Below are positions 7,548-47,000 of a stretch of 64,000 nucleotides of DNA, piece by piece (position 1 is the first letter of the stretch; every line of letters starts with the position of its first letter). The notes beneath the pieces are model-generated. The model saw nothing but the letters and a program-made list of their open reading frames with translations, searched no databases and was not told the DNA's origin. The position numbers and the translations under genes are program-made. This DNA comes from Convolutriloba macropyga (taxonomy: Eukaryota), in contig NC_134479.1 of assembly GCF_964194025.1 (NCBI RefSeq), forward strand, positions 25,358,001-25,422,000. Direction: 5' to 3'.

Positions 7548-7734
7548 ACCCTCCCCCTCTTACCCCAATGTTGCCCCAGCCCCCGGTGAACCCCCCCCCC
7601 CCTATCTGCGCTCACAGAACGCCCCTTTAATTAAATTGAAGCTAGCCTCACTAAACCGTGTCTAGCTACGGATGAAGCCAACGGCTCGCCGGTCGTTTGA
7701 GAGCTATTCGCCCGACGTTAGTGGGTTATGTTTT
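7281..7734 (+). mobile_element. Helentron-like (HINE/DINE-1-type) non-autonomous element, family A
   Basis: GCTCTCAAA near the 5' end and its inverse TTTGAGAGC about 30 bp from the 3' end. A short CCCGAC-GTTA-GTGGG hairpin remnant and a T-run follow. Internal poly-C/CA tract. Confidence 0.65.
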
Positions 7735-20000: not shown

Positions 20001-23000
20001 CGCGGAGTTTGGCCGGTTTTGCGTTTATTTTGTTAAAATGTAAGCAATTAGAGAGTCAAATCTTGAATTTGAAATTTAAAACGCAACCTCTTATTGTAAT
20101 AAATTATGAAACTTTTGAAAACTGTCTTGCTGGAAATTTTTTTTTTGGCAATTGGGCGTCATCGGGTGCATAATGTTCTAATATTTGAATAACTCTAAGT
20201 AATAAAAACTAAATAGAATTGAGTATTCAGTCAACAAGGAGGTTCGGTAACGCGCGTTTGCACATAATGTTCCGAAACAGCTCGTCTATTTCTGGACTTA
20301 ATTGGCTACCAAATGAGAAAGAGATGGCAAACTTTCAAAAACATACATATCGCTCAACTAAGCACTAATAGAGTAAATTAATGCCACTGCAGAGGGCCGA
20401 TGATAATAGTTTTTAATAGCATTACTAGAAAGGACCATCAAAAAATAAATGTACCTTGTAAAAAAACAAAGCCAAGAAACAAATGTTTGAAACAAAAATT
20501 GTTATAATGATTAAATTATAACTTAATGGAAACGGGTTGTGACCTCTCTTTACAGACACTCATTTACAAATTGACCAAAAAATGAGGCTCAAAAATCCAA
20601 ATGTTTTGAAGACAAAAAGTTTTAAAACCATAACACAGGTTTTCACTAAGGGTTGGATTGCACCACTTCAGGATTGCAACTACAAAACAACAAATACAGG
20701 CAGAAGCCAATACTTCACAAAAATTTTTCAGACACCATATGATATCGGCAAGATTTGTAAATCACTTGCTTCTTATCTGAACATCAGTTCTTCCTTAGTT
20801 CTTCTTTATAAGAGCAGTACGTAGAAATGACAACAAAAAGAAATCAAAAATTGAACAGCATCGAATTTTTTTAATGAAATTAAATGATCGAAGCCATCAG
20901 TCAAAACATATAACGAACAGAAATTAATGTTAGAATCAACCAAAGGAGACGAGACTTCTTATTAATGAGTTTTGAGTCACTTGATGACGAAAATGAGAGA
21001 AGAAAGGAGGCAGACAAATCAATTTTTTTATTTCTTTTTAAAGAAATTCAATTGATAGTCATTTAAATAATTTGCTATCAACTGTAGTTGTCAGATACGT
21101 TCAATTATACGTCTTGGGGAAGCAATTGACAACTATCATTATCAGATAGGAAACACAAACACAAGCAATAATAAAATCTTCGAGAACTATGTCTCAACCC
21201 ATAAAAGCATAAACTATTCGACAACAAAATGAACATTCAGTTTCGCCGTCTTTCATCGCGTTGCCTTCTTCCAGCTCTTCATTTCTTTAATTGGAGCTGT
21301 CAATAATGTAATACTTTGACAAAGAAACAAAATGAATCTATAAAATTGGTAATTATTGTCCAAAATGAAAATTAATTGTGAACTCGTATCAAAACCAAGA
21401 AACCATCAGTTAAATATAATACGTTACAAACTTTAACTTAAATCTCACAGTAAATGGGTTTTGGCCTATCTTTACTGAGACTACGCAAGAATTTGAGTCA
21501 GCGACATTTAAATCAAATATTTTCAAGGCGTAAGAAACATTAGATAACAACTGAAGGTATTCTCTAGGTTTCTGTTTAGCTCCTAAAGAAGGCAGTCGAA
21601 TCTCTGATTGGCGAGACTAAGTCCTTGAACTACGAAAAGTATAACAAATGAAAGCATAGCCATAATTTTCTTACGAAAGTTTTTGCTCGAAGCAATAAAA
21701 ACCATGAGCTTAACTCTTCAACCGTAATATTTTTTTCGTTGGATCTCATTTTTTGTAAATATCATCTGTCAATTTTTAAGACCTGATATGAGTTTCTTGT
21801 CAGCGATTAACATAAAAAAAAAATTACAAATGCGGAAATTTTTTTGAAAAAGGACCCCGCCCAAATAAAGTTTTATCGTAAGGATCCATGGTGGGATCAA
21901 AATTAGCTCTGATTTTTCTGCGCGTCTAAGAAAACACTTGATTGTTCAAATGGTTGCGAAATATGTCAATTTTTAAACTTAATTGTTTAGTATATCAAAA
22001 ATGAATAATTCATTTTGTATAATTATTGAGTATTATACTTACAAAAAATGGTGAAATTGTGATTTCAGTGTCTTTTGGGGCCAGCGGGAGTACAACTAGC
22101 TCTTTTGTGAGCTCACGAGGAATATGTGCGCAGTTTTTAGGTGTCTGTGTCCAGCAAATGTGAAGAAAGTTGCCTAAAATGCATATTTAGTCCCATTTTT
22201 GACAAATTCTGATTTGAAAAATTGAGCTTAATTTCTAGCCAAAAAACTTGCATCGAACCCTCCTCTATCTTCAAGGATTACACCAATAACTGTACGGTTA
22301 ACACTTTTAACATGTTTTGGCAAAATTGACGAAAAATGGATTACGAAAAGCTTGAACGAAAGCATCTTAAATCGGGCGAATGTTCACAAAACTTATAACT
22401 CCCAGTAAAAATTTGAAATTAAAACAATCTATTTAATTCCATGCTCCACGGTGGACGGGCTTTCTAATGATACCACTCACAACTCTCTGCGATATTATAT
22501 CGATCGGCCAAAATTGACTGAACAAATAAAAACCCATTTGAGTATATATTTCCTCCCCCACTAAAGTGGGTCGGAACAATAAATTTACGCTAATAAAGAT
22601 AGGGTCAAAAAGCTAGATAAACGGGATAAACGTTAGAGGCTGGCAGAACGAGTGCAGTAAATTATCATGGTCCCTAGAGTATACTGCTAACTGTTATTTG
22701 TGTTAGCTCGTTGTCCTTCAATTTGTTGGCGGAATTCGCCGTGTTTCACAAATCTAATGGAACTGCGGACCATATTAAAACCCTAAAGCAAAAAGTGACA
22801 GCCTTAGTTTTTTTTTCATTTTCGACCTGATTTAATCCGAACGTTGATCAACGTTGGCTATTTTCTGGCAATCTACCTGTTATTTTTATTAATTGAGTAG
22901 CTCTTAAAGATTAAACCATGTTACTTCTTTTTTCTCGCTTTTGTACGAGCTGTGTTCAATCTTTTTATTCTGCGTTCATGTGGTTGACAATTTGGACTTA

Positions 23001-26000
23001 TTGTCTCGGACCCACCATCTTTGTGGGCATAAAAATTTTACGCAACAGGTGCACTTACTACTTTTTATATGGTAACGTGTTATAAAACAACCCATAATTT
23101 GTAACTGGGGGTCATAAACAGCATGGGGGAAGGGGGGGGGGTTCGAAACAGAATATATTCGACAGTTTTCCGTTGTGTAAATAGTAGACTTTCAAGTAGT
23201 GTTACATGATTCTGGTGAAGTTACTGAGAAAATGTCTTTCGTCTTGGTCCAGTAGCGACGCGAGATCTCTCACAGAGTTGCTTCAAGTGCTAATCAGGCA
23301 CTATATAGGATGTGGCCTTGCAGATATCCGGCGTTTTAAAACTGGCGCTTGAGTGCTTCAAATATATGTTTAATTACAGGTTGTGCAGCAGATCAAGCAA
23401 GAGTTTGTCTCATCTAGCATTAATGTGATGGATGTGTTCTCCACAAATCGCATCGCTCCAGAGTTTTGAGTCACTTGATGACGAAAATGAGAGCAGAAAG
23501 GAGGCAGACAAATCAAATTTTTTATTTCTTTTTAAAGAAATTCAATTGATAGTCATTTAAATAATTTGCTATCAACTGTAGTTGTCAGATACGTTCAATT
23601 ATACGTCTTGGGGAAGCAATTGACAACTATCATTATCAGATAGGAAACACAAACACAAGCAATAATAAAATCTTCGAGATCTATGTCTCAACCCATAAAA
23701 GCATAAACTATTCGACAACAAAATGAACATTCAGTTTCGCCGTTTTTCATCGCGTTGCCTTCTTCCAGCTCTTCATTTCTTTAATTGGAGCTGTCAATAA
23801 TGTAATACTTTGACAAAGAAACAAAATGAATCTATAAAATTGGTAATTATTGTCCAAAATGAAAATTAATTGTGAACTCGTATCAAAACCAAGAAACCAT
23901 CAGTTAAATATAATACGTTACAAACTTTCACTTAAATCTCACAGTAAATGGGTTTTGGCCTATCTTTACTGAGACTACCCAAGAATTTGAGTCAGCGACA
24001 TTTAAATCAAATATTTTCAAGGCGTAAGAAACATTAGATAACAACTGAAGGTATTCTCTAGGTTTCTGTTTAGCTCCTAAAGAAGGCAGTCGAATCTCTG
24101 ATTGGCGAGACTAAGTCCTTGAACTACGAAAAGTATAACAAATGAAAGCATAGCCATAATTTTCTTACGAAAGTTTTTGCTCGAAGCAATAAAAACCATG
24201 AGCTTAACTCTTCAACCGTAATATTTTTTTCGTTGGACCTCATTTTTTGTAAATATCATCTGTCAATATTTAAGCCCTGATATGAGTTTCTTGTCAGCGA
24301 TTAACATAAAAAAAAATTACAAATGCGGAAATTTTTTTGAAAAAGGACCCCGCCCAAATAAAGTTTTATCGTAAGGATCCATGGTGGGATCAAAATTAGC
24401 TCTGATTTTTCTGCGCGTCTAAGGAAACACTTGATTGTTCAAATGGTTGCGAAATATGTCAATTTTTAAACATAATTGTTTAGTATATCAAAAATGAATA
24501 ATTCATTTTGTATAATTATCGAGTATTATACTTACAAAAAAATGGTGAAATTGTGATTTCAGTGTCTTTTGGGGCCAGCGGGAGTACAACTAGCTCTTTT
24601 GTGAGCTCACGAGGAATATGTGCGCAGTTTTTAGGTGTCTGTGTCCAGCAAATGTGAAGAAAGTTGCCTAAAATGCATATTTAGTCCCATTTTTGACAAA
24701 TTCTGATTTGAAAAATTGAGCTTAATTTCTAGCCAAAAAACTTGCATCGAACCCTCCTCTATCTTCAAGGATTACACCAATAACTGTACGGTTAACACTT
24801 TTAACATGTTTTGGCAAAATTGACGAAAAATGGATTACGAAAAGCTTGAACGAAAGCATCTTAAATCGGGCGAATGTTCACAAAACTTATAACTCCCTGT
24901 AAAAATTTGAAATTAAAACAATCTATTTAGTTCCATGCTCCACGGTGGACGGGCTTTCTAATGATACCACTCACAACTCTCTGCGATATTATATCGATCG
25001 GCCAAAATTGACTGAACAAATAAAAACCCATTTGAGTATATATTTCCTCCCCCACTAAAGTGGGTCGGAACAATAAATTTACGCTAATAAAGATAGGGTC
25101 AAAAAGCTAGATAAACGGGATAAACGTTAAAGGCTGGCAGAACGAGTGCAGTAAATTATCATGGTCCCTAGAGTATACTGCTAACTGTTATTTGTGTTAG
25201 CTCGTTGTCCTTCAATTTGTTGGCGGAATTCGCCGTGTTTCACAAATCTAATGGAACTGCGGACCATATTAGAACCCTAAAGCAATAAGTGGCAGCCTTA
25301 GTTTTTTTTTCATTTTCGACCTGATTCAATCCGAACGTTGATCAACGTTGGCTATTTTCTGGCAATCTACCTGTTATTTTTATTAATTGAGTAGCTCTTA
25401 AAGATTAAACCATGTTACTTCTTTTTTCTCGCTTTTGTACGAGCTGTGTTCAATCTTTTTATTCTGCGTTCATGTGGTTGACAATTTGGACTTATTGTCT
25501 CGGACCCACCATCTTTGTGGGCATGAAAATTTTACGCAACAGGTGCACTTACTACTTTTTATATGGTAACGTGTTATAAAACAACCCATAATTTGTAACT
25601 GGGGGTCATAAACAGCATGGGGGAGGGGGGGGGGGGGGGGGGGGGGTTCGAAACAGAATATATTCGACAGTTTTCCGTTGTGTAAATAGTAGACTTTCAA
25701 GTAGTGTTACATGATTCTGGTGAAGTTACTGAGAAAATGTCTTTCGTCTTGGTCCAGTAGCGACGCGAGATCTCTCACAGAGTTGCTTCAAGTGCTAATC
25801 AGGTACTATATAGGATGTGGCCTTGCAGATATCCGGCGTTTTAAAACTGTCGCTTGAGTGCTTCAAATATATGTTCAATTACAGGTTGTGCAGCAGATCA
25901 AGCAAGAGTTTGTCTCATCTAGCATTAATGTGATGGATGTGTTCTCCACAAATCCATTCAATTTCACAGTCAGGTTGTCCACAGCCGAAGAAGTACAGAT

Positions 26001-29000
26001 GGTCATCGACAGTTTCCACAAAAAAGTAGTCGCAGGTAAGAAAGGAATTGATTAACATCTTTATTGCATGGTGCATTTATGTAAAGAAAGCTTAGTAGAA
26101 ACATGGTAGAGCGAGGAAAACTAAACAGAATCTGTTGTTCGAAAATATTATCAAAATTGAATCAAAACTGCTTCTTATTGTAAGTTGTTGCTCAGGGGAT
26201 GCTGCACTGTTAGATATCATTGCATTAGTTTCTCGTGAACTTGGTCTTTTAAACAAACGTATTACGTATAATCTACACACGACGTGTTCACTAAATGCTA
26301 ACGACTTACGAGCAAAACTAAATTTGGATTTTCAATCGCAAATTATTTGCTTTAATATAATCCCTAGTGGAATATGGCTGAGAGAAGGAAACGAGACAGA
26401 TTCTTTTTTTCCTCAACTGTCCACATCGTGTGTATTTTAGGCTTAGAAATATATGTTAAAACGAAGACGCCCAAATCTGGACAGTTCCAAGTGAAGGTAA
26501 AGCCTGCGAACCCCAACGTAATGTTCGACTACGAGTTCTCAGAGGAGATATCCGAGGTGCTGAAGAAGATGGATATAGACGTGCACAACTGCAGAGGGGT
26601 CAGAGGTCAACTGGTCGAGATCAATCTGTACAATCAAGAGGACATTCCCAAGGTAAAAAACATTTCATATATTTATCATACATTTCAGTCAAGTTAAGCT
26701 TGCGTATATTGTAAGCAATTGTAACGGTAAAAAGGTTAAAAAGAACAACAATATAGTTTGCGCGCACGATACGCTTGATACTGTGAATGATAGGAAGTTC
26801 TGCTTGTTCTCAGTATACTTCGCTAAAAAGATCAAATTTTGACGAACGAGATAAGCTGTTAAAAGAGTTACCCCAGTGTCGACACCTTAATACTGCTTGA
26901 TGTAATGTTTAACACACTAAGCGTGCAAGTACGAAATGCTGGTTCGAAACCAGCAATATTTCATTTTCACATTATTTGAGTTTGTATAGAATCCCAAAAT
27001 GAACTTCACGAATAATTGAGTTCCTTAATTTAGTAACTATTGAATGCGGAGCAATAATGGGGATTTTAATTATCAATATATGCAAAGAGGCTCGATAATA
27101 TGCGTTTTCACCGACCCCGTTTATCCACATTTTTGGCTAATTGGCTACCAAATGAGGCAGAGATAGAAAACGTTCAAAAACATACATATCGTTTAACAAA
27201 ATCACTAATGGATTAAAAATAATGACACGTTTGATGGCCGATGAAACTTGCTGTTAATAGAACTACTAGAACAGACAATCATAAACATCAAATGACAAAT
27301 ATTAATTACGACCAAAACTCGACGTCTATATTTTAAAAAATAACAAAATTAAACTTCCATCAGATAAAACCTGAACAAAACAGATTGACCTATACTTCAT
27401 TAGAAAAGATATGGGACCTGTCTTCAGTGCGACTGGGTAGCAGGTCGACAATAACAGCAAAAAGTTGCGAAATTAAAAAAGTTCCTGTTTTTGAAAACAA
27501 TTAATTTCAAAGTGATTAAAATCGGTAGATATTAACTGAAATCACTAAAATGTTTATTTATATCTTCATAAGAAACAATTGAGACCATCAATTGTCATTA
27601 TCCAGTGTACGTCAGAAGACTACAATAAGAAGGACAAATACCGTTTAAATTAAAAAGTTTTTTAAACTTTGCGCTAAAATCGCAGTGACGCTGTTAAAAC
27701 CATAAGTTTGTCCTTAAGAACATTAAAATTGTTCAATTGTGGAATTTTTTAAAGCCAATGGGAGCGATCATTAATGTTATAATTTAAAAAGAAAAGGAAA
27801 ATCCTATAAATTTTACAAATATATAAGAATCATAAACAATTTATGAATCTTGTAACAAATTCGAGAAACAAATGGTTGCAACTGAAGCCGTTGAAGATTA
27901 AATTACTGCTAACTGGCAAAGTTCTTATTCCAGAAGACTGTTAATGCCAGCTGGAGTACAACTAGCTCTCTTTCTGAGCATACGAAGAGTATATCCGCAG
28001 TCTTTAGGTGTGTACTTTCAGTAAATTTGAAGAAAATGGGTTTAAAATGCATATTTGGTCCCTTTTTTGACAATGTCTGCATTTTGGAAAGTTTAGCATA
28101 TATTCTAGTAAAAAAACTCGGATCGAACAATTCAGCAACCCTCCTTTATCTTAAAAGATAAAGCCAATAACACTACAGTTAATAATAAATTTTTAGAAAA
28201 AGACGAAAATTGGGACAAATTAAGGAAAACTTGGAACGAAAGCAACGTATTTCGGAGCACAAAACTTAAAATCTTGATGTCTCCCTGTAAAATACAAAAT
28301 TCAAAAAAATGTTTTTCATATTCTGCGCTGGACGAACTTTCTAAGTTCAAATTCTGCGCTGGACCAACTTTCTAAGTAGTGATACCACTCACTACTCTCT
28401 ACTATGATTATATTGATCGGCCAAAATTGACTGAACAAAAAATCCCATTATGACGATGCTAAATTTTGATTGGTTGAAAAAGACTTTTGTAAATTCATAC
28501 AGCACGCATTTATTATCTTGAAATTCATATAGACGATTCTGCTCAGTACAGTTCAGTTGCTTACTAAATTACTTGAATTGAAAACTTGTAGCAGAAAAAG
28601 AGCGTTTTTACCGAACCCGCGCTCCGAATAGCACTTAGCAAAAACTTGCAATTAAAAGCCTTTATTAGAAAGGATATTGCAACGGTAACTCGTCTTCATA
28701 CAATATAGCACTTGGCACTAGCACCTACACAGCCGCCTCTAAAAAGATAGAAAAGGTAGAAGCAAATTAAGAAGAGAGTTAACTCATGGAATTAGCCATT
28801 AACGGAAAAACTTACAATCTTCGAATCATTAGAAAAACAAACACCGGAATTAGCCTTTATTTTATCGCACAAGAAGACAATCAAACCGATATCAAACGGA
28901 TCCGTATTACAAAAAACTCAGAACTTTACAATTTCTCTCAAAACTACCGAATTCGAGAAATTAACCAAACAACAAGCACAAACCAACTTTACCCATTCAA

Positions 29001-32000
29001 AATTATTTGAGCATCAACCTCTTTGTTTTGCTAGCAAAGAGAAAATACAACGCAAGCCACAACAGTACTTCTATGACACTATTGGAAGGCTATCATACTA
29101 GAAACCCGTTCGTATTCTTCAACGACAAAACAATCGACAGAAAAGTAAGTCAAAAACTTGCAGCGAAGAACAAAAAAGACCAACCAAATAGCCTAAACTG
29201 CAAACTCTGTGACACAGCTAAATTGGAGAAACGCACAAATTGCTCTTTCCACAAAAACACTTCAACAACAAACTGACTAAAGGAACATGGCAGATCCAAG
29301 TCCGCCTCACGTACATCTGAAAAGGTTCTCAGGACTACCAAACGAAAACTGGCCTGAATTTGAAGGACTACTGAGAGCAAACTTTGCTGTATCTAGAATT
29401 CCTGAAGCGAACCACCAACGTGCAAGATATCTTCACCTACACTTAGCCGGTAATGCACTCAACTATTACCTTCGACTCGCCGAAAACACAAGAAACGATC
29501 TAGACGATTCGCTTGAACAACTACGCAACCGATATGCAGGAGCAGACCAAAGAAGAAACTTTGAGCTCGATCTGCAATCGAGACAGTTCGATCCAGTGAA
29601 AGAACAACCCGATGACTTCCTCACAGATCTGCAACGCCTCGCCAACCTCGCAATTGTGGACGATCCTGCAGCTCACATAGACCGCACTGACGAAAGAACA
29701 AGACGAATAAGAGAACAATTCATTCAAGGCATGCCCTTCAAGTACAAGAAAGTGTTGCTGAGAGAGAATGACAACATCACTGTAAACGAACTATGCGCTA
29801 TCATCAAACGACGAGTCAGAATTGATCAGATAAACCCCGAACCACAATACACCACGGCATTCAATGCACTAAACGCATCAGGAAATCCTGCTGTGGCCCA
29901 AGCCATAGAAAGCATAATGGCCGCCGGCATAGCATCAATGCAAGTAGCACAGCCACCGCATCAGCGCGTGGAGAGTACTCAGTACCCTAGCTACAGAAGA
30001 GGAAATAACTACAGAGGCTACAACCACAACAGACAAACATACCAGTATAATGGAAACCAAAATGGCCGAGGATACAGTAACAACTACAACAGCAGAGGAC
30101 GTAACCGTGGAAGCTTTCAGAGAGCCCGAGGAAATTATCCGAGAGGAAGGTCAAACTTCCAACGAAACGACCGAAGTAATGGACGTACCGAAAGATCTCC
30201 TACACCAATGAGAACATTTTGCAGAACATGTGCTAGCAATGAGCACACTGCCCGAGATTGTCCAGAACGTCAACCAGCATACCGCGATGGAAACATGCCA
30301 TTCATTCAGCAATCAAAAAACTAAATAACCTGCATGTTTTTCTACAACATATACCAGATAGCATGACAAACTATAGCGAAAATGTATTCATAATACCTCT
30401 GCAGTTCGAAACATTAATAATGAAAGCAGTAGCAGACACTGGAGCATTCAGCAGCGCCATGTCAAAGAAACATTTTGATAAAATAAGCAGAAACCTCTAC
30501 CAAAAACCAGAAAAAACAAATCCTCCTGAAATAAACGTTTCTACAGCTTTCCTACACCAATCACCCATTTTATTTACAGTCCAACTGACATTCAAAATTG
30601 GCCATTTACAATTTGAGGAACAGTTCATGGTGTTTGAAACACTTTCCGCTATCCTTCTTGGCTTTCCCTTCTTTGATAAAAATGAGATTATTATTGATGC
30701 CCACAACAGACTACTCCAAACACCAGAATTTACTTTTCAGCTAAATCTAATGCACATAAAAGGCAACAACAAACAAAAACGTCTCAACAGCCGAAAAAAA
30801 ATCATGCTCAAAACCAAAACAACCTATACGCTATCACCTGGGGAACAAAAATTTCTGGAACTAATCCCATTGGAGGAAACTGATGCACAAGAACAAATTG
30901 GACTCGTAGAGCCTACTGTCAAATTTGAAAAACTGGGCCTTGGTCTAACAAGCACGCTTGACAAACTTACAAAAAACAAAACTACCACCCTACTTGCAAT
31001 CAATACAACAGAAGTTCCACTGCACATTAGACAAGACTCTCCAGTAGCAACATTCGAAATCATCACACCAGAGCAAGCACGCTACCTGATACCACTTGAG
31101 CCAAAACTTCTCCCATCAAGCGACTCAAAGAAAACAATAAAGCAAATAGAAAAATCTATAGAGAGAACAGCAAAAGGCGAAATAAATCATATAACAATAA
31201 CACACGAAAACGGATTCTGGTTTCCGACCCCAGAAACCAATCCCGACACATCGAAGATGAGTGAAGTTGAAAAACGCATATATGACGAACTTGTTAAATT
31301 TAAAAATCTTGAAGCAATTCAACCACTCTCGAAAAACGAAGACAGGAAAACTTTTCTTAACGCATTCAAATGGAGCGACAGCGTACTGTCTGACAAAGAT
31401 AAAGAAAGAACAGAACAGCTTCTAGTCGAATTCAATGACATATTCACAAGGCACCGCCTTGAAATTGGCTACACTCACAAATTCTCAGTCAAATTGACAC
31501 CAGACACAAACAGACCTGTATACTCAAAAACTCAAAGAATTTCAATCCATCTCAAAGACGATTTGCTTATTGAACTAGCCCTTCTCCAGTACTACGGAGT
31601 CATAACAACGCTCCCCTTCAGCCGCTACTCATCTCCAATATTTGCAAAACGGAAGCCAAACGGGAAGCTCAGAATATTAGTAGATCTAAGAAAAATGAAC
31701 CATCTCGTTAGAAACGACTACAACAATAACAACTTCCCGATAGCTACACTAGCAGATGCGGGCACCCACTTAGCCGGCAAGAAACTCTTTTGCAAGATGG
31801 ATGGCAGCCACGGCTACTTCTCTGTACCAATGGCAGATGAACAATCAGTACAGTCACTGGCCTTCAACTTCGCATCGAGAACATATGCTTTTCAAAGACT
31901 AGCCCAAGGACTAAGCAGAAGAGTCAGCGCCTTTAGCTCATTCATGCGTCAAAACCTGGACCCCGTGATAACAGCGGATAAATGCTTTCAGTACGTCGAC

Positions 32001-35000
32001 GACATTGGCATCGGAGCACATGACACAAACGACATGTTGGAAAAACTTCGAGCAGTCTTTACATGCATCCGAGAATCAGGAATGAAACTCGCAACAGACA
32101 AATGCGCATTTGGACTCAGATAAATACAATTCCTTGGTAATACGATAACCTCTGAGGGTCTCACACCAATTACACAGAAGATTACAACCTTTCTGAAAAC
32201 ATTCAGAATGCCGCGAAACCCAAAACAAGTCAAACGAATGATCGGATTTTTTCAATTTTACAAAGCCTTTATCCCTGAACTTGCTGAAAAACTTTTACCG
32301 TTCTATCGTCTACTTAAGAAAGGCACCAATTTCGTGATAGAAGAAGAACACCAAGTTATGCTTGAAAAGCTCACAAATGATCTAAGAACAGCCTGTGACC
32401 TTTCACTCAGATTACCCAAAAAGTTGACCAGCAATATGTAATAATGGCTGATGCATCCTTTTACGCAGCCGGATACGTACTAATTATGGAAGACTACACA
32501 ACAAATGATGATAATCAGGAACTGAAAATTTATGCACCCGTCAGTTTTGGATCTAGAATTTTCCACCCAAACCAACTCAAACTTTCGATATATGCGAAAG
32601 AATTCCTCGCAGTTCACTTTGCCCTAGATACCTTTGCAAATATTATATGGGGATGTAAAAAACCAATTCTCATTTTGACAGACAACAGATCAGTAACCAG
32701 GTTCTTTCAAACAAAAATCATACCGCCAACACTTTGGAATGCTCTCGATCATGTACTCAGCTTCGACATCATACTGGGACACATACCCGGAAAAGCCAAT
32801 TTAGCAGCGGACTATCTGTCGAGAATACACATAAACCCGAAAGAGAAGCTCGATCTACGCATCAACTCACGCATACCGATGCACGAAATCGAAATCAACA
32901 CAGCAGCAGATACACCTGACAATTCAATCAGTTATCTGAGCAGCTCAGAAAATGACGATACCCCCAAAATTATGAAAACATACTTACTTGAGAGAAAACA
33001 AACCAGCGGAGAAGATCCTATGAATGTTCGAGCTGACGTTCAACTGCAAATTCTTTCACCTGCAACGCAACAAATAAACGCCATGCATGAACAAAACCCA
33101 TTGGATGAATTCATCACTCATGGGCACGGACCTTTAGATCTGCGTGCCGAACAACAACAAGACAAAGATATCAAACGGGTACTGCTCTGGTTTGAGAGAG
33201 GTTCACCGACTACAGGACAATATCTATCCAGTGACCTAAAAAAGTATCTCAAGCAGTTCCCAAGACTATCGATAACAGAAGGCGTCCTTCATCGCAAGTT
33301 CTATAACCACACTGGAAACCAATTTATTAAACAATATTGCGTCCCGTCGCACTTACAGAAGGAAGTACTCTACAGAATTCATAACAGTGTTTGGAGTGGG
33401 CACAAAGGAGTCTCACTGACAATAGCAGAATTTAGAAAACGATTTTACTTCCCGAACTTCACTGAACGCCTAACAGAATATATCAGAAACTGTCTCACAT
33501 GCTTGCAAACAAAACCAGCACCAATATCTGCATTGAAACCCCATTACAACCACTTTCGTCTCTGCAGAACTTCCCAGCAGACCTTTTACTAATAGATCTG
33601 GTGGTAAAGATGCACCCTTCTCCCTACACGTACATTCTCTCAGGTATTGACGTGTTCTCGAAGTACCTTTTCGTCACACCTCTTATGTAAGGCGACGCAG
33701 ACATCGTAGCACGAGCCCTTGTCTCAACTTTTCTGAGACACTCCTACATTCCCTCAAGAATCATATGTGACCTTGGAACTGCGTTTACTTCCGAATTAAT
33801 GAGCGAACTAGCAAACCTATTTGAGGTAGAGCTCAAACATTGCACACTGAAACATGCGCAAACCATTGGCTTACTTGAAAGAAACCACGCACCGCTCAAA
33901 CAAATCTTGAGAATTAACGAAAACCAAACTTCCTCGGACTGGCATAGATACGTTGACATTGCAGTATTTATACACAACACAACATTTGCACAAGCTCTTG
34001 GGTGCACGCCATCTGACGTCTTTCATGGCAGAACACCGATAAATCCTTTGGACCTCAGATTTCAGAATACAAAATTATGGGAGTCTCACCCAAAATACGA
34101 CTGCATTAAAGAGCTACAAGACAAAACTACGGAGCTTTTCTCCAGCGTAAAAGACAACCTTATCTCGTCTTATCTGAAATATAAAAAGTACTATGACAGA
34201 AAAGCCAACGCCACACCACTAAAACCCAAATCATACTGCCTGATCCTTGACCCAAAAAGCACAACACAAGTAGCAGTGATCAATAAACAGCAAAGCAGGT
34301 GGATACCATTATACAGAGTAGAAAAATTGCTCATGAATGCAAACTACATTGTACGCAAAACCAACACAAATTACACGCAATGTATCCATCGAATGAGACT
34401 TCGACCTGTGAAACCTCAATATCAAATAGAAGACCTCGAACATGTAGACCCAGAAAACTTTGAAGCAGATCCCACCATACCAGAAGAAGAGAGAGAACCA
34501 CAGCTGTTCGACAACCAAGTCAGGCACCACATTAACGAAGACAACATGCAGCTACCCAGTATCTGCATTGAAACCCCCATTACAACCACTTTCGTCTCTG
34601 CAAAACTTCCCAGCAGACCTTTTACTAATAGATCTGGTGGAAAAGATGCACCCTTCTCCCTACACGTACATTCTCTCAGGTATTGACGTGTTCTCGAAGT
34701 ACCTTTTCGCCACACCTCTTATGAAAGGCGACGCAGACATCGTAGCACGAGCCCTTGTCTCAATTTTTCTGAGACACTCCTACATTCCCTCAAGAATCAT
34801 ATGTGACCTTGGAACTGCGTTTACATCCGAATTAATGAGCGAACTAGCAAACCTATTGGAGGTAGAGCTCAAACATTGCACACTGAAACATGCGCAAACC
34901 ATTGGCTTACTTGAAAGAAACCACGCACCGCTCAAACAAATCTTGAGAATTAACGAAAACCAAACTTCCTCGGACTGGCATAGATACGTTGACATTGCAG

Positions 35001-38000
35001 TATTTATACACAACACAACATTTGCACAAGCTCTTGGGTGCACGCCATCTGACGTCTTTCATGGCAGAACACCGATAAATCCTTTGGACCTCAGATTTCA
35101 GAATACAAAATTATGGGAGTCTCACCCAAAATACGACTGCATTAAAGAGCTACAAGAGAACCACAGCTGTTCGACAACCAAGTCAGGCACCACATTAACG
35201 AAGACAACATGCAGCTACCCATAACAACACCAGATGTCCAGTCAGTTTCTTTCAACTCAAACATCCAAACAGCAAATTTTTCTTCTGAAGACCCGCCAAT
35301 ACAATTTCATGATATGACACACGAACCGACGTTTGACCAAGATGCATTCTTCTTGGAAGGCTCAGTTCCAAGCGCAAACACGCAAGAAACACCAGAATCA
35401 ATTGATACAGGAGACTACGTCTTCTCAAACAACTCAAACTTCTTACCGTCCGACAGTCGTTTTGGCTCAAATCGACGATACAACCTTCGCAGAAATGATC
35501 ATCTGGCATTGGCCCGAGAACTCGCTATATAACCTCTTGCAACCATCAGAAAAAGCAAAGGAAGAACAGGTCAAAGTAATAACTTACTTCCCACTTGACC
35601 ACATCCCAGACCCAAACCTGACAATTGATACAACAGAAACTGATCACGATGAGAGCATTGCAGACTCACAAGCAACAAGCTCACAGTCGCGAAACCAGAG
35701 TCTCAATGACTTCACGTTCGATTCACCTGAAAATCTTGGCGATCTATTTGATGACGTTAATAGCCCCGTCTACACGCCCCCAATATTAGACACTACAGGC
35801 GAAACCTTTTACCGGACCAACTCGATCAACGATATTTACAACAATACAACCTCAAGCAATGATGTCCAACAACCGAGATCCGACGAGAACAATGAGCACT
35901 CCCTTATAGGAGGCACCATTTCACAAATTGAAAATAACGAAAGCAATAGTGCTATTGCTCAACACGACAACCCAAGAACATCTTCACCACTTCCTCAAAG
36001 AGTATCCAACAGAGAACTAGCGGACCTTGGCCCAACGCTTCAAAACAGACGGAGAATTGTTCCGCTAACACTTCACCGTCGGGAGATCAACGGAAACCTT
36101 CACCAAACTTTTGGCTTCGAAGATGACAGCCAATAGGAATTGAGCACCAATTCTCTATTATACATACACATTAGATACGTCACCAACCAATGAAAACACT
36201 CCAAAAAAAAATCCTAATTTAAAAGGAAAAAAGACACAGCTCAAATCATTTTCCAAAATTTTGTACCTCAAAATCGGTCGCACAAAGACTCTGATTCAAT
36301 TTCACAAACAAGCCTAGTTAGCAAAATGCTCAATATCGTACTATTTTTACTACAACTTTTACCATTGATGAAAACGAACCAACCATCGGTGGCAACAAAA
36401 GATGGAGTATTGTTCAACCTTCACCAGAAAATTCTATTGACAGAAAAATTTGTCAAAACTGAAATCCTGGTCCCCTACCCAATATATAACAAAACAGTGG
36501 AAGACAAACTGATCAACCTGACAAAAGAGATAGACAAAATGTGGACTTCAGAAAATCATGGATGCCCATTGAACTTCACAAATATGACTGACTCGACAGC
36601 AGGCCTCCACTGGATAGCGCAACAAACAATGATAGAAAACCAACAGGCCCAACACGACATTGTAAACCTCAAATTGGAAATGAGCACACTACTAAGAGCA
36701 AACAGTCAAACTTCTACAACACTGCAAAGACAACCCCGCGGTGCGACTGCCGCAGCAGCAGCAGCCGCAGTGCTGGGAATTGGAATAGGAACAGGCGACA
36801 AAATACTATGCTTCATCAAATCAGTGTTTGGAGGATGCGACGAAAGAGTGGCTAGAAACCAGAAAAACATCAGACAAGCAATGGCTTATCTTCAATACCT
36901 AACCGATCATGTCAAACAAATAACAATCCAAAATAATGAAAAATTCTATGTTGTATCAGGTGAACTGAAAGCCATCAAAGAAGCCCAGAACGAAATAATA
37001 GAGACACAAAACAGGAACTGGGAACTTGCTGAAGGACAATTCAAGGCGTTACGACAAAACGTGCACCACATGAGAAACTGCATCCAATACTTATACGTAA
37101 GAGAACAAATCAATCAACATAGTCTTGTACTTAGCAATATTTTTCAAGCAATACTTGCTAACATCAAAACATACCGATCGGCCCTTTATACGTTTCGAAT
37201 CAACATACTGAATGCCTTGACGCCTCTCATGAATCAACTATTACCAATGTCATGAGTCCCAAGGGAGCAGTTGCATGAAATTCTTACGATTGTTCATTTG
37301 CAACAAAATGGACAACAGGATCGATTTGCTCTAGCCGTACCAATTCAAGAGATTCTCTCGTACTATGAAACGAAATTAGTCACACAAGTCGAGGCAATTG
37401 ACGCAGGTCTTATACTTACACTTGCAATTCCAATGGCTTCAAAAAGTACAGTTGTGAACGTATTGCATGCCATTCCGATCCCAATGCCGGACGGGGATAC
37501 GGGTAAGGCTTTAGTTTGGTGACTTGAAGCCAAATACATGGCCCTCTCAGACGACGGAGAAGAACTAGCGTTTATCGATGAAGACGAGCTCGAAAATTGT
37601 ATCGGATCCCAAAAATACGCAATATGCACCAAAGCCATTCCAACAGAACAGACTTATCGGTCCTGTATGGCTACTTTACTTTACCACGATGACGAGCTAC
37701 TTGCATTGCAACGCTGTCAACTGGATGTAGTAGAATTGCCGTTGACTGAAAAAGCACGCAATCTCGGCTTCGGTCGTTGGTTAATAACATCGTCCAAAGA
37801 CGATTATACACTCATCGAAAGCGCTGGTAATGGCAGCAATCCATTGGCAAGAATTGAGCATCCTGGGTGCAGAGTGTGTATCATCACACTGGGATGTGGA
37901 AAACAGCTTAGAGGACCAAATGTTCATCTTCGCTCAGACCTCACTGCTTGTGACACAGTACCGGCAATACGGTTAGATTTTCAATTACCAGATCCAATAA

Positions 38001-41000
38001 GTACACTCTTCAAACTACTGCCCCCATTGGATGAACTACCAAACTTCTCATCAAGATCTGAGGCACAAATTCATATTCTTCAGCAAATTCAACCAGAGTT
38101 TAAACAAATGGAAACACGACGAACAAATAGCAAATCAATAGAACGAATGGCCGAACCACTTTTAGAAAGAATAAGAGCATTCAAGCCCGAACTCGAACAC
38201 CGATTCGAACAGTACATACCATGGAAAATGTCTCTTCTTTTCGGATTTTTATCCTTCTTGATTAGCGTATTACTACATCTAACTTATTTGCATCTTTTAC
38301 ACAAATGGGCAAAACTTCACCGACGTTTCCCTTTCCGAATAACACACGAAGGACGGCGAATAAAAACAAAACCAGTACAAGTTGTCGCATTAAATGACTA
38401 TGATTACCTACAAGAACATCCAGAACATCCCCTGCACAAATGCTCACTAGTACTACCACTCGAAATTAAAACTGAGTTCGAAAACCAAAACGAAGAAAAC
38501 ATAAATAAACCTCGCACTCCTTACACATTCCTAAGAGACTACATCAGGAGACTAAAACGTAACGAAGAACCAACTATCAAAATTGATCATGTCAACAGGC
38601 CTGCCGCACCGAGTCAGCCCATCTATACACATATACCGGAACAACCACCGGTATCCCATTACGGAGCGTACCCTCTCAGAACAATCAATACAGGAAACGT
38701 TTAAAAAAAACCTGACCGGGACTCGAACCCTCAACTTCAGCATGAGAGTGCAGCGCGCTACCAACTGCGCTAAGTGGGACGGCCGCGTGGTCCGTAAAAA
38801 CAGCTTATAAATAAAAAAAAAAGAAAAAAAAGTTAAATTTTTTTACCCTTCCCCTCTTCTCTTCCCCCTTACCCTAGCTTACCCTTACACCCCTTTGCCC
38901 TTTCCCAGATTTTCCCACATTATGGAAGCACCAGGAACCCGCCGGGATTCGAACCCGGAACCCCAGCTCAACGGCCAGAGATACTAACCACTGAACTAAG
39001 TCACTTGTTAAAAGTTATCAATTACATTCACTTCTACTCTGCCGCAAATTAGAAATTTTGTGTTAGCAGTGAGCAAGGAAAACAAAACTTAAAAATAAAA
39101 ATTAAAAAAAAATTTATTAATTAACAACATTTATAATAGCCCTAAATAAACCAGAGAGACCTATCCTCCATCTGGAAAGTACCTACCATTATATTTGCGA
39201 AAACTTAATTCAAAATTTTGATATTACTCGTGTATTAAACCGAAATTTTCATTACTTGCAATTATTCTTTGAGAAAAATCAACAAGGAAAAATTACAGAG
39301 CAATTCCCCTTAAACCTCCGTTGTTAAAGGCGGGGATTTGCTCCCTACCTTTTTATCCAGCGACGAATTTATTTTTAAAAAAGAATTTATACTGACGCAC
39401 TAAACAACGGAGTAATAAGATGCGACTCCTAAAGGAAACTTATCAATTATCTGTCAAAGCGAGAAAAAGAAGGAAATCCATTAACCCGGAAGGCGAACTG
39501 TCTATCAATCACAATGACAGCCTATAATGGAACACTAATCAATCCAACCAGGGATAATTCCCCACAATCCCAATTAATCAAAATGTCAAATTTCCCCCAC
39601 TTCCCCCGCAACACTATCAATCATTCAAACTACTTTCTGCCTGCTAACTACCAGCAACACTCTTCATTGCTAACTGTTCATTCTCTCAACCTATTACAAT
39701 TTCTTCGCGGATAGAAACTTGGAAATTATTTCAAACAACTTAAACAATTTTCCTACAACTAAAACTTTACCTTTTGCACTATTTCAAACATTTTATAATG
39801 AATCCAGTATATCACTTCAGAATTAAAGTTGAGCCGCGCATTAACACTACATTCAACGGCCAGCCAGCTTATATTACTGAATACAGCATTGCCTTTTTTA
39901 CAGATCGTGAAGCAATAATTAGTATTAACATGCAACAGGACAATATTGTCAACAATATTTATTCAATTTCTTTTATCCCCCTTACAGTGAATGAGACATC
40001 AGCCGTATGGCAAACAATTCTACAATGCATACAATCGGGAAATAATTATAATAATGGGAATTTCTATCTTAACTCAGAAGGAGAACCAGCTGCAGTAGAA
40101 CCATCGCAACCAACCATTTCTGAAAGTCCCGACAGCCCTGACCCTACATCAGACCACAATTCAACTGAATTAAATAATATTCCAATTTCTCCCCATCACC
40201 CATTCCATTCTCAGATGACTCTATGTAAATTTCCTCAAATATTTGCATTTCTTTTCCATTAAAAATCTTATCTCATGTCTTATCCACCAACCCCAACTTT
40301 CACCACAATTGACCAATCAGAAGACACCATTCCTTACATCTCTCCAATTCCAACCCAATTTCCACTTTATGCTTACTTTCTCACTGATTTTGATATAAAA
40401 CTTGCAGTCTTTTCTGAATACTGCATAAATAATCAAGACAAAAAAATCACTTTGGAACCAGATCATCCAAATTTTCTTACCTTTTTGAATTTCTTACAAA
40501 ACACCAAAGAATTTTTAGAAGGCGAATTTGACCTGTAATTTCTTTTTTTTAAACCATATTTACTTTTTCTTTCCCTGATATTTCCAAATCTCAAAACCTA
40601 GCAATTCTGAATTTTCTTAAAAATCATGACAAGCAACTAGGACCAAATCCGAAATTACGTCGGCCCAGAAGACATCGCCCCAAAATTACACACGAACCAC
40701 AACATCAACGTTTGCGTGAAAGTAGGAATCCAATACAGGGAATGTTTTTGCAATGAATATGTCATATTACAAAATAGAACCATCGTGATCTGGGCACACT
40801 CCCATACAGGCCTTCTCACGAAAAAATGTTTTTTCTACACAACCTGGGAATACTACACCTACATTTACCACTTCATTACTTCATCCCAAGGTACCCAACT
40901 CACCCACCAATTCTGGGATTTTATTCAAATGGACAATGACGACCCCATTGAGTTTGACCCTGTTGGCATCCGTGTATTCACTTAGACTTGCATAAACTTC

Positions 41001-44000
41001 TTTAATTTTTTTTATTATTCGAAATATTTTTTTTAAATCTTTTCTCTCATGAGTCGCAATTAATTTAATGTAGTACTTATTTTATAAACACCGCAAATTA
41101 TTCAAATGTAACGCCTCCTCTTCTTATTTTTAATTTCTTACCAATTTATTTTTTTTACTTCTGACCAAAAAAAAAATTACTCGTGAGTCATAACTCGTGA
41201 GCACTATTATTGACCAATCTATTCCCAACCTTTATCAACAAAAATTAACATCCCACCTTGTTATCACTTCGAAGGGCACGCGATTGAAAGTCAAAATGTT
41301 AATTGCTTACACTACATACGACTGTGCAAAGTAACGACCCAAAAAACTCACGAAACATCATTTTTTTTCCAGAACAACACCAAACTAACACAGACAGGAC
41401 CCTTACCGATTGCCCAGTATCAGCAAAATAATCCTTTCAAAATACGTTGAAAGGGCACGGGCTTGAAATAATAAAACCTCAAAAAAAGAAAAAAACCTGG
41501 CAGTATAGTTCCAACCCTAAAAAAAATGTAAATTAAAGTCGAACAACTCACTTATTCCATTGAAGGATCCTTTGGAGGAAGAAACGAATACACAATATTC
41601 TCGTTCGATTGCGTTTTCGTTTCCCGTTTCCCACCCCATTTTCTTCGATTACCTCGTTTGTTATTTGTTTTCAAAATTAGACCACTATTAGCGAAACTTT
41701 GCACATGCTCAGTCACATCACTAGCACCACCAGTTGATACTTCTCTTTCTTTCGCCCAGTCTAACACTGCCTTTTTTTTATTTGATATTACAATTCTTTT
41801 TACCGCACCTTTACGCACACCATAAGCAAACGATCCCAAAGTCCGATCAACAACAACTTGATTCGATTGATCAGGCGCCTCCCAGCCCGTCACTAACGAC
41901 AAACCTTTTGTAAAAGTTAAAACAGCATGCGCACACAACGAAGGCTGGCACAACACATTATCTTTCGTCGGAATGAAAAACCAAACATCCTTTCCCAAAC
42001 CACTTGCAGAAGGACCCCTCTTAATTAAATCCATAAAATATTGCGGAGTACCCATAACATTATTAAAATCCCTTGATGTCTGATAACTTCCACAAATCAG
42101 AAACAATTTCTCACCACACGGCGTTTTCGAAACACTATCATTACCCCCAATCTCAACATGTGCCGCCGTCCACCACTCATTCCATTGTACCATGGCATCT
42201 CTCCTTACACCAGTAAAACCATCAGGCAAAACACCACTCATCAAACCATCCACACAAAACGTCAAACCTATTGAATTACACAAACCAGAATACGACCCAA
42301 CTTCTTGATACAACCTGCTATCACCAATCTCCAACTTTAATTTACTAACATAATTATACACATCGCCCTGATCTCTACAGCCCCGGAACCCTTCTGCTAA
42401 ACTTTCTTGTAATCCCACAATTTCTTCATTATTTATTGCCAATGGTACCTTTGGCCAACCATTCTCTCCAACCAGTCCCCCTCTAATTTCTTACCAATTT
42501 ATTTTTTTTACTTCTGACCAAAAAAAATTACTCGTGAGTCATAACTCGTGAGCACTATTATTGACCAATCTATTCCCAACCTTTATCAACAAAAATTAAC
42601 ATCCCACCTTGTTATCACTTCGAAGGGCACGCGATTGAAAGTCAAAATGTTAATTGCCTTTCAATCGCGTGCCCTTCAATTGCCTTTCAATTGCCTTTCA
42701 ATCGACTGTTTCCACTTCTTTCCATCCGAGACTTACTAATTTTTTCCGATCGTAGTACTGATGTTTGAACTCCTTCATTTCGATTAGCAAATCTTGTCTG
42801 CCTCGTGTCGTTCTAAACACGATAATTCTGTAACGATAAACACGATAAACACAAAAAAAATTTAATGCTAGCCTATGAAATCCTAAATTGTTATAAGTAA
42901 TTAACGAACCTTTTAGTGTCCATACTTTGATAAAATACAATATCCCGTCTCTTCGTTATTACAATCGTTTTTGCAAAGCTTCGATAAAAGATCCAACAGT
43001 CGATGAATAACGCCGCTATTAAAGTTTGACCTCTTCGCAGTAAACGTATTCTGAATAACTTTATCACTAGAGCAGTCAATCACACTGTTCTCAATTTACT
43101 TTCCTCCAAAACTTCCATTAGTGACTGTCAATTACTGCCATACCGAGGGAATTACTTCCGAAAACTCCATTAGTGACTGTCAATTACTGCCATGTCGAGG
43201 GATTTACTTCATTACTTTACTCCCCTCACAACGTGGAGCAAATGGAACTGCCACACTTGACAGATCACTACTACATTAATCTTCCTGGGAAAAATGCAAA
43301 TAAACCCGAAGAGATTATCAAACAACTGTCTCACTGATACAAAATCTAATGAACGGCCTCCCACTCTAACCTTACTCAGAAGAAAAAGAAACTATTCATC
43401 ACTTTATCTATTCAGTTCCACTTTTATTTTTAACAGCGAAGAAAACGGCAGCGAAGTAAACAAAACAAATGAACTATCAGCCTGACCCCCCACAACTCTT
43501 CTCCTTCGACGGGCGGCTCGCCCTGCTAATAAAAATGGGCATACTAGAGACGCCCATTTACCGCACTTACGTGCAAATTACATACGTTTGGCAGGGCGAG
43601 CCCACGAACCTGGACGTACTGAGAAAAACAGCCCTCATACCAAGACGAAGCAGACTTATGCCTCACTTAAGGAGAGTTGTGGGCGGTCAGGAGGCCCTAA
43701 ATCTACAAATCGAGCCTCACCACTACGTAATCAGACATTTTTAATCTATTTTTGTACAAAACTGCACGCCTTTATTTTTCTAATGCATGCTTACTACGCC
43801 TGCCACGACCAACACGAACATCATTGAAAGACTTGGCAAGAATCGAGGACACAAACCACCAATCCCTCCATCACCAACTGGACAAATATGGCTCCGATAT
43901 GGCACGAAACTCACATCCACTTGGCCAACGCGGAATGTAGTATTCTTTTCACAACATACAGCAGTCGCGTTCCCCAGCTCAATTTCTTCGCATACATGAG

Positions 44001-47000
44001 ATGAGAAAACAAAAGGCCACAAAAGAGCAAACAGAAAGTAAACTTTCAGCATTTTGATCTGGAATACTCAATAAAAACTTAGAACAAACCACTATTGATG
44101 TTGCTTTCCATTTATACTTAATTAACCCAGTAAATCCCTTGACTTTGGCAATACCACTAATCAAGACCCACTTGGCACAGCACACTAGGCAACCCTGTTT
44201 ATAATCATAAGATTAAAGGTTCGAAACCCATCGCCTCCGCTTTTTCTGAAGAGCCGTAATGTGACGATGCTAAATTTTGATTGGTTGAAAAAGACTTTTG
44301 TAAATTCATACAGCACGCATTTATTATCTTGAAATTCATATAGACGATTCTGCTCAGTACAGTTCAGTTGCTTACTAAATTACTTGAATTGAAAACTTGT
44401 AGCAGAAAAAGAGCGTTTTTACTGAACCCGCGCTCCGAATAGCACTTAGCAAAAACTTGCTCTTAAAAGCCTTTATTAGAAAGGATATTGCAACGGTAAC
44501 TCGTCTTCATACAATATAGCACTTGGCACTAGCACCTACACAGCCGCCTCTAAAAAGATAGAAAAGGTAGAAGCAAATTAAGAAGAGAGTTATCATACCC
44601 ATTTTAGCATATAGCCCCCCCCCCCCCCCCCACCGCCCCTCCAAAGTTGGTCCGAACAATTAATGGACGTCCGTCCAAGATGTGGACAGTTTTCTGAGAT
44701 ATTAAATGGAGTGTTACTTGGAGAGGCAGATTTGACCTGTTTGACGGCGGACTTTCAGACGGTATTTCATTTAATAATTTCTGTATATTGCCATGGAGTC
44801 ATGCGCGCCTACGTATAAAAATGGTGAATTTTCAAATATTTTATAAGAATTTGGGCATATTATAAGATTCTATTATATCATTTGTATCTTAATGATTCTT
44901 CAGATCGAAAAACTCAATTATGTATTTTTATCTGACAACTTTTTCAAACCTAAAACGAACTTTTTCTGGACTGTTTAGGTCCTGGAAAAATTCAACAACA
45001 CGAACTTCGGATTCATCGATATTGTTGCCGAATCACACGTTGAGTCGGAGGCAGACGACAAGACGGCTTCGTCATCTTCGGCAACTTCAGAATCGACTGA
45101 GAGTCAAAATGGAGAGATAAAAACTGAGACAGAAGATTCCACTGAGACGTCAGGTATTGGCACTTTTTAATACTCATCTTGCAGTATCAAATTTAGTTTT
45201 AGTTGTTAAATATAACCTCCTGTCTTATATCTGAGCGCAATCATGATTACACGCGAAAGATTTCAAAGAAAAAAAGTTGAAGAAAGATTCCAAAAAAGCG
45301 GGCCGCATTGGAGCCTATAGCTGCGCAGTTGGAAACGTAGACCACATAGAAGAATTTTTGACCAACTATTCTATGCCCAACTTTCTATCCGTGTCTGTGC
45401 CAACTAACCTCGAGACAATGCATGCCATTTAATAAGTTAATTATTATGAACGTGTGTTTTGAAATTTGTTTTGAATAGTTATTGTGTTCAGGTGATGCCT
45501 CCAGCACAACTGGCAGTGATAAAAGCAGTCAGGAATCTGAGAATCTCAGTTGCGAGCCGTTCGTGTTTGCGGCAATGAAGACCAGCTCAGATTCATTCAC
45601 TCCAAAAAATATGAAAATTTTATGCAAGGTAATAAAAAGACTCAATGTTCTACCGCACTAGTAAAGTCCAATAAGTATTAATCTAACTATTCAACCTTCG
45701 GTGAATAATCGGTAGAATTTGTTGCTGAATTTTAATTTTGGGTCCTAGTGAACAAGGATAATTGGTTCTAATTATTTGGTTATATTATTTGTCTGATAAG
45801 GCTGCAATTAAGAGTAGCACGTTTTATATTGAAGAAAGATCAAATTTTGAATGTTGTGAAGGTTTATTATTATGTGATGATGATTTTTTGGTCATGAAAT
45901 CAGCAGCTCAATAGAACGCCATTTCGTTACAGGCTTTCGAGCAGGAATCTATAGAAGTTTCTAGAAGCAACACAGCATCTGCTGGGAAATTCGCATACTT
46001 TTTTGTCAAATCCTGGGATGACGTGGAGAAATTCCTGAACAAATATGGAAGCAAGTTAATTAACAACATGATGATCAATTTTGAAAAGGGGTCAAGGAAG
46101 AGCCCATTTATGCAGCAGAATTCGGCAGAACAGCAAAACAGGTAAGACTAAATTTGTTTCGCCAGTCGAGAAAAATAGGACTATATTGAAATTCGGCGAT
46201 CGATTTGACTACTTGAGAGCCGTTCAAGGCGGCTCAAAACGCGCGGTTCTCAGAAGGAAACGAGCAAAAATTAATTGATGACACAAACTTTAATCACATG
46301 GCTGACTCTAGTACTTTGCAAACCTAATTATTGCTGAATGGTAATCAAAATTGGTTTAGTAGTCCGAGAACTGTTTTGTAAACGTAATTTTGCGAATTGA
46401 TAAGCTCACAGTTAAAAAATAAAAAGTTCTCAATTGGCAGAAAAAGCCAACAGTTTTTGTGTTTAAAAGCAGCAAAGCGATAACTGGGGTTATTATTGGC
46501 CTTACAATTAGGGTGGTTTTTCTTACAATTAGGTTGCTGCCTTCTTCCGACTCGAAGATGAGTGTCGGTTTTCTTGAGATTTTTTTAAACCGGAAGTAAT
46601 ATTTGCTCACACGGCGTTTTGAACTAAAAGCGAAAATAAGTAAAATTGCAGTGTCGACCAATTTTTTCTAAGCCGGAATTTTTTCTTAATCATGTCTGGC
46701 GTTCAGTGAATGACCTATTGACTTTGAAAAGTGTTTTTCAGAGAATTGCGCATATAGATAACCGTTTTAGCCGTTTTTTTGTCCTTTTTTGCTAACTTTT
46801 TTGCTTTGTTTGGTGTTTTGTAGATGCTGATAGTTAATTTTCGATTGATGCTGCATTCAAATGTAACCATCTGAAATTAATATCACAGTATTTTTAAGAA
46901 TCTAATAAAGCGTTTCAACTGCAAAATGGCACATATTTCTCAATTACATTTAAATTTTGTTTTTGTTTATTTTTTTGGACATTTGAGAGGTCTGTTTTTA

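Follow-up and report, generated by a model that had tools for sequence, protein, structure and literature searches.

Two tandem tRNA-like units lie on the minus strand directly behind the env gene of an LTR element, which raises the question of whether they are tRNA genes, reverse-transcription primers, SINE copies, passively copied debris or small-RNA genes that the element has retained. RNA polymerase III (Pol III) small-RNA genes are found in a few vertebrate retroviruses and DNA viruses, foamy viruses have Pol III miRNAs, and tRNA-like promoters occur in short non-autonomous LTR elements. Salmon swim bladder sarcoma virus reportedly carries a single Leu-tRNA sequence within its genome, a similar case of a tRNA-like sequence inside a retrovirus genome. 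A literature search of titles and abstract openings, with most subscription journals and supplements outside its scope, found no antisense tRNA-like Pol III units behind a Ty3/gypsy env. Here, we analyze the pair, hereafter the cassette, in a 64-kb window (the whole stretch of DNA under analysis) from a host genome of 1.18 Gb. The cassette is real and family-specific, it is neither a primer nor a SINE copy, and a likely donor is identified.

The carrier element and its antisense units

Both units sit inside one LTR element at 28449-44597 of the window, a 16-kb env-bearing Ty3/gypsy element with the layout gag-pol-env. The 5' LTR (28449..28781, + strand) and the 3' LTR (44260..44597, + strand) show 4 differences in 333 nt and are bordered by the target-site duplication CCCAT at 28444-28448 and 44598-44602. 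LTRs of this family start with TATGA and end with TCATA rather than TG...CA, and the target duplication is 5 bp. Gag (with a CCHC knuckle) and pol (in the order PR, RT, RNase H, integrase) occupy 29281..35532 on the + strand and are broken in this copy, which also has a 1036-nt tandem duplication within the gag-pol region, two in-frame stops in env and a short deletion at the 5' LTR, where the LTR end and the primer-binding site (PBS) are missing. The env-like gene (36218..38704, + strand) has a furin-type site and a fusion-peptide-like stretch and is F-type by Atlas features; as no more than a lead, the Atlas clusters nearest to it are those of F-type fusogens, with Baculo_F on 12-23% of members and recognition below threshold. 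From the LTRs, PBS, gag, PR-RT-RH-IN order and F-like env features alone, the carrier would be classed as an F-type env Ty3/gypsy element, errantivirus-like. It shares gag-pol-env, an F-like env and a tRNA-Ser PBS with the ‘errantiviruses’ (F-type env Ty3/gypsy, PMC13524379), although it is longer than the 14-kb LTR-distance limit of that survey, whose main text does not contain the term ‘Pol III’.

An A+B box scan of the window returns two matches, precisely units 1 and 2, where 100 block shuffles of the window give 0.04 on average. Unit 1 (38703..38780, minus strand) has its A box at 38772-38761 and its B box at 38729-38719, a 3-bp T stem and no acceptor stem. Its T8 terminator (38710-38703) runs into the env stop codon TAA (38702-38704), of which it covers the final two bases, an overlap already seen in the preliminary description, and a putatively functional TATA-like TATAA lies 25-29 nt upstream (38805..38809, minus strand). 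The body of unit 2 (38931..39005, minus strand) has its A box at 38998-38987 and its B box at 38955-38945, with an intact T arm and again no acceptor stem. Its first T4 starts at 38831, 114 nt beyond the B box, in a T8 run (38824..38831, minus strand) that is its first Pol III terminator, and the intervening 3' extension (38832..38930, minus strand) consists of a small hairpin and a G-rich tail, with the sole G-quadruplex motif of the 16-kb element at 38916-38890. The predicted minus-strand transcripts are ~75 nt for unit 1 and ~177 nt for unit 2. A search of sequencing runs listed none of RNA that contains these sequences; two runs of unspecified type cover the stretch but are uninformative about expression. 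Both units have the layout of a type 2 Pol III gene, with internal A and B boxes at tRNA spacing and a downstream T4+. The box scan confirms the earlier claim of two minus-strand units with A and B boxes and T-run terminators, except that the terminator of unit 2 does not adjoin the tRNA-like body.

Both units fail as functional tRNA genes, a candidate that we reject on the 7-bp acceptor stem, the 7-nt loop and the covariance cut-off. In each unit, just 2 of 7 base pairs can form between positions 1-7 and the 3' side, which bears out the earlier remark that neither makes an acceptor stem. ARAGORN calls neither as a tRNA, and with Rfam RF00005 unit 1 reaches 24.2 bits, below the 29-bit cut-off, and unit 2 gives T-arm fragments only; such low or pseudogene-like scores had been predicted. 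The 6-nt anticodon-like loops (CTCTCA and CGTTGA) of the preliminary description are indeed in the sequence, but in unit 2 a predicted 17-bp hairpin consumes the supposed anticodon arm. Its view that the promoter is kept and decoding lost matches the anatomy and the copy data, with promoter activity itself at the level of prediction.

Supply of a reverse-transcription primer, another role that had been proposed, is refuted at sequence level, and we assign it a negligible probability. All six intact 5' junctions among the 16 LTR-end junctions listed have the same PBS, which is complementary over 14 nt, CCA included, to the 3' end of a host tRNA-Ser(GCT) (an ARAGORN call; 53 genomic matches to that 3' end). 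The 3' end of neither unit matches this PBS, and nothing was found in favor of a primer role.

Distribution of the units and a donor for unit 2

Genome-wide, the exact A-arm patterns have 55 matches for unit 1 and 59 for unit 2, and by coordinate pairing and direct checks 54 and 59 of these, or 113 of 114 together, are in the carrier family. The possibility raised earlier that the units belong to a dispersed SINE family found mostly outside the element is rejected on these counts: the units themselves are not dispersed outside the carrier family, and the single outsider, a match of the unit 1 pattern, is a HINE-like host repeat with at least 2497 candidates. When copies were chosen by the env 3' end alone, both A-arms were present within 2 mismatches in all of the best 40 of 110 candidates, and exactly in 37 and 38 of them; being the best-scoring of the 110, these are young copies. 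The cassette is also found in a 76-80% identical copy and, in degenerate form, in a ~70% identical one.

In the nearest sister families, with env 81% and 56% identical, the cassette is missing. Rfam gives no tRNA match on five sister-family stretches, and an A+B match is absent from all 43 stretches (23 clusters) taken downstream of env in other families, some of which may come from truncated copies. Weak tRNA-profile matches are present in 9 of these 43 stretches, all at least 1.8 kb from env and not common to cluster mates. The genome has many more env-bearing families. Gain of the cassette in the carrier family is the simplest reading. Viral and metagenome contigs contain no relatives of the cassette, and three near matches to the middle of unit 1 outside the known copies have no element or tRNA context.

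The host repeat is ~400 nt long and shows the anatomy that defines HINEs, namely subterminal inverted repeats, a 3' palindrome and T-rich ends. Among 30 copies, 29 have the 3' subterminal inverted repeat and hairpin and 28 the 5' subterminal inverted repeat as well. Between these repeats lie an internal TATA, an acceptor-less tRNA-like unit with A and B boxes, and a T run. The first set of features is shared with the HINE / DINE-1 non-autonomous Helentrons of PMC4067079 and the second distinguishes the host repeat from them; the words ‘tRNA’ and ‘polymerase III’ are absent from the text of that paper, in which no Helentron-type element that carries its own Pol III unit was seen. The heads of the HINE-like repeat differ widely among subfamilies (copies L341-L370, for example G000:C7:66241178), and fragments of it lie in the window at 7674-7733, 1761-1808 and 19165-19207.

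A profile built from the 30 copies has its best window match in unit 2 (22.0 bits, E 2.4e-6, 39013-38919), and this match extends before and after the tRNA-like part; a host tRNA profile gives unit 2 just 14.5 bits. With the boxes masked, unit 2 scores higher against the repeat than 60 of 60 shuffles, and against host tRNAs it is at chance level. When the hairpin loop and 3' arm are masked as well, 7 of 200 shuffles score as high against the repeat. Unit 2 likely derives from the tRNA-like unit of the host Helentron-type (HINE-like) repeat, and not from a SINE. Given this homology to a dispersed HINE-type repeat, its origin would be capture from another transposon, and its longer predicted read-through is due to the T run of the donor being missing there. 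For unit 1, neither candidate parent does better than chance with the boxes masked, as 6 of 60 shuffles score as high against host tRNAs and 7 of 60 against the repeat. The host tRNA comparison covered 10 amino-acid types, and a closer parent of either unit may be among the missing types.

A donor of this kind also suits the explanation that the cassette is a passive relic, in which pieces of a host tRNA-like repeat landed once behind env and have been copied along since, and in which the good state of the boxes would reflect their presence in the donor and the youth of the active lineage. Donor repeats of this class are abundant and weak tRNA-profile matches occur in sister-family stretches, so such insertions are common. 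However, the TIRs and body of the donor are not in the element while both promoters and terminators are still there, and we consider a relic possible but rather unlikely.

Predicted fold and variation among copies

For the 86-nt body of unit 2, the predicted fold is a 17-bp hairpin (38962..39000, minus strand; 10 Watson-Crick and 7 G.U pairs, 5-nt loop) plus the T arm, not a cloverleaf, with a z score of -3.05, and the fold of unit 1 is unremarkable (z +0.81). A 17-bp helix appears in 0 of 2000 shuffles of unit 2, and helices do not exceed 9 bp in the 19 host tRNA types compared or 10 bp in the heads of 30 donor repeats. The hairpin is strand-specific, at -19.3 kcal/mol on the minus strand versus -2.4 on the plus strand, and in the folding models nothing hints more strongly that a minus-strand RNA matters; the absence of the hairpin from the donor heads and the host tRNAs tested also counts against a relic. 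The stem is shorter than the usual Dicer substrate. The full 180-nt transcript of unit 2 is not unusually stable (z -0.52), and its 3' extension forms short stems only.

The same calculations bear on whether the cassette is instead constrained as part of the sense (genomic or env) RNA, for example as an export or packaging element, with the Pol III signals incidental. The cassette is within the 3' part of all sense transcripts, and retroviral export elements are located 3' of env. In both units, however, the plus strand is no more stably folded than its shuffled versions (z +1.11 and +0.74), which makes a sense-RNA role highly improbable.

Among the copies, the oldest well-aligned one has 4 differences at stem sites and keeps pairing at 4 of 4 (post hoc p 0.015; z -3.50), and the single lineage-level stem variant, present in 13 copies, changes U.G to U-A. 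Over all stem departures, pairing is kept in 9 of 25, with 35% expected (p 0.52), which is neutral-like, and pairing and covariation scores in 24 mostly diverged copies are not significant, with 30-54 of 500 shuffles as high; the lack of significant covariation in both analyses favors a relic. An unrelated MITE of ~130 nt contains a 17-mer that agrees with the 3' arm of the hairpin at 14 of 17 positions and would pair likewise; it was picked up with a degenerate pattern chosen post hoc, so some of the wobble pairs may be inherited rather than selected. The match of the MITE profile to this arm is not significant (E 3.7). The MITE (L428-L447) has G/C-run inverted ends, and its 17-mer resembles an inverted tRNA A box.

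For a comparison of substitution patterns, 189 loci were reduced to 72 rows and, after removal of one tandem duplicate, to 71, in which one place is counted twice (L184, L414). A site was counted if a variant is present in at least 5 of the 71 rows, and the T-rich stretch 38810-38839 was excluded from the cassette. Variant sites make up 9 of 265 in the cassette versus 105 of 700 in the adjacent non-coding sequence (p 8e-8), a flank whose higher rate may stem from homopolymer misalignment or recombination. Lineage-shared changes are approximately four times rarer in the cassette than in this flank, which speaks against a relic. At env four-fold sites 12 of 157 are variant, and the cassette is not significantly lower (p 0.064), a result on the side of the relic; at env codon positions 1-2 the count is 6 of 734. 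None of 46 box positions has such a variant in 66 rows. This low variation is not box-specific, given that the remaining cassette is almost as quiet. Old dead copies decay evenly and their boxes are lost at the background rate, as a relic would predict, and many older copies were recruited via the unit motifs, which biases toward conservation. Constraint on the cassette is likely from these alignments, but it is not significant against the best neutral yardstick, the env four-fold sites.

The quiet sequence outside the boxes and the minus-strand-only hairpin are both left unexplained if the promoters act only in cis, that is, if TFIIIC and Pol III on the two promoters form a chromatin barrier or a point of transcription interference and the RNAs are by-products. 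This is an explanation that we regard as unlikely, although there are two tandem promoters, one of them without RNA structure, at the border of env and a 5-kb block of extra ORFs, and a barrier would here separate gag-pol-env from the downstream accessory genes. tRNA genes can act as barriers, which counts for a cis role. The collision of Pol III with Pol II reported for the BLV cluster (PMC4992882) also counts for it. A working promoter of either kind, for small RNA or in cis, is probable.

Possible role and known counterparts

We tentatively favor a retained Pol III small-RNA cassette, in a place like that of the BLV miRNA cluster but antisense, and regard this as plausible, if somewhat short of probable. 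The loss of the acceptor stems alongside intact canonical boxes and terminators is in its favor, but sister families replicate without the cassette. In such a scenario, a DNA-level insertion would have captured the donor unit, and the remainder of the donor would then have been lost. TFIIIC and Pol III would bind and transcribe both units, and transcription would stop at the env stop codon, leaving the env frame free of antisense RNA. Unit 2 would give a ~177-nt RNA headed by the predicted 17-bp hairpin, through which it may act as a substrate or decoy for host small-RNA or dsRNA-sensing proteins, like viral Pol III RNAs; unit 1, without a stable fold, may be mainly a second promoter. A bolder version, which we consider doubtful, is that the element built its own Pol III small-RNA gene from the tRNA-like unit of a rolling-circle transposon and refolded a dead cloverleaf to give the 17-bp hairpin, which the host RNA-silencing machinery would process or bind, as an independent Ty3/gypsy counterpart of the BLV miRNAs and adenovirus VA RNA.

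The closest counterpart in position is the BLV Pol III miRNA cluster, which lies between env and R3 (PMC10236774). In both cases, type 2 Pol III units that end in T-run terminators follow one another in a retroelement, directly 3' of env, and are described as convergent with a Pol II transcript. The BLV units (PMC10236774, PMC4992882), however, are sense, form pre-miRNA hairpins, have the B box past the terminator and are established by ChIP and sequencing, whereas the two present units are antisense and tRNA-shaped, contain the B box within the unit, are predictions from sequence and, in the case of unit 1, are unstructured. Helenus/TRIMp3, with Cassandra and Ajax (PMC10886601), likewise combines an LTR element with tRNA-like A and B boxes that are kept without decoding or priming, and an origin via insertion of another element has been proposed for Helenus as well (PMC10886601). 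It differs in that the element is short and non-autonomous and each of its LTRs bears the unit, as the presumed driver of its own transcript; the units here are internal, antisense and self-terminating within a 16-kb gag-pol-env element. The MHV68 TMERs (PMC4337559) are similar in that their Pol III RNAs are clustered, tRNA-like without decoding, and extended at the 3' end. They keep a tRNA-like module that RNase Z cuts and that is followed by miRNA stem-loops, whereas the present units lack an acceptor stem and the long hairpin is within the tRNA-like part. Given the lack of an acceptor stem, a TMER-like miRNA route is unlikely.

If the cassette is retained, Ty3/gypsy elements would be able to gain non-coding accessory genes, in this case in an autonomous, invertebrate, errantivirus-like family, and one such gene would be traced to its donor transposon. 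The predictions are exact, namely minus-strand RNAs of ~75 nt and ~177 nt. If it is a relic, it would still be a clear case of the Pol III unit of one transposon being spread by another.

The 5-kb block of extra ORFs that borders env includes one antisense ORF (41552-42490, minus strand; 312 aa) with JmjC-like features, namely Atlas matches of 0.93-0.97, many of them JmjC, and with H-x-E and a distal H recognized by eye. It has no Pfam match, a PDB sequence search gave no match, and a single-sequence structure model is uninformative (pLDDT 32). Part of it is common to a sister family at 68% nucleotide identity, and a ~170-nt direct repeat at 41135-41310 and 42480-42660 brackets it, as though the ORF were an inserted cassette. 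Further short ORFs of 172, 91, 114 and 95 aa lie between env and the 3' LTR at 39744-40985 and 43780-44067; a Pfam scan of those of 172, 114 and 95 aa gave no match. Upstream of the element are an RT-bearing ORF (4767-5987, minus strand) and a 500-aa open frame of the OATP family (9660-11162, + strand), and the host flanks contain a 2494-nt tandem duplication at 20967-25929 and a 749-nt tandem array of 4 copies at 59711-62365.
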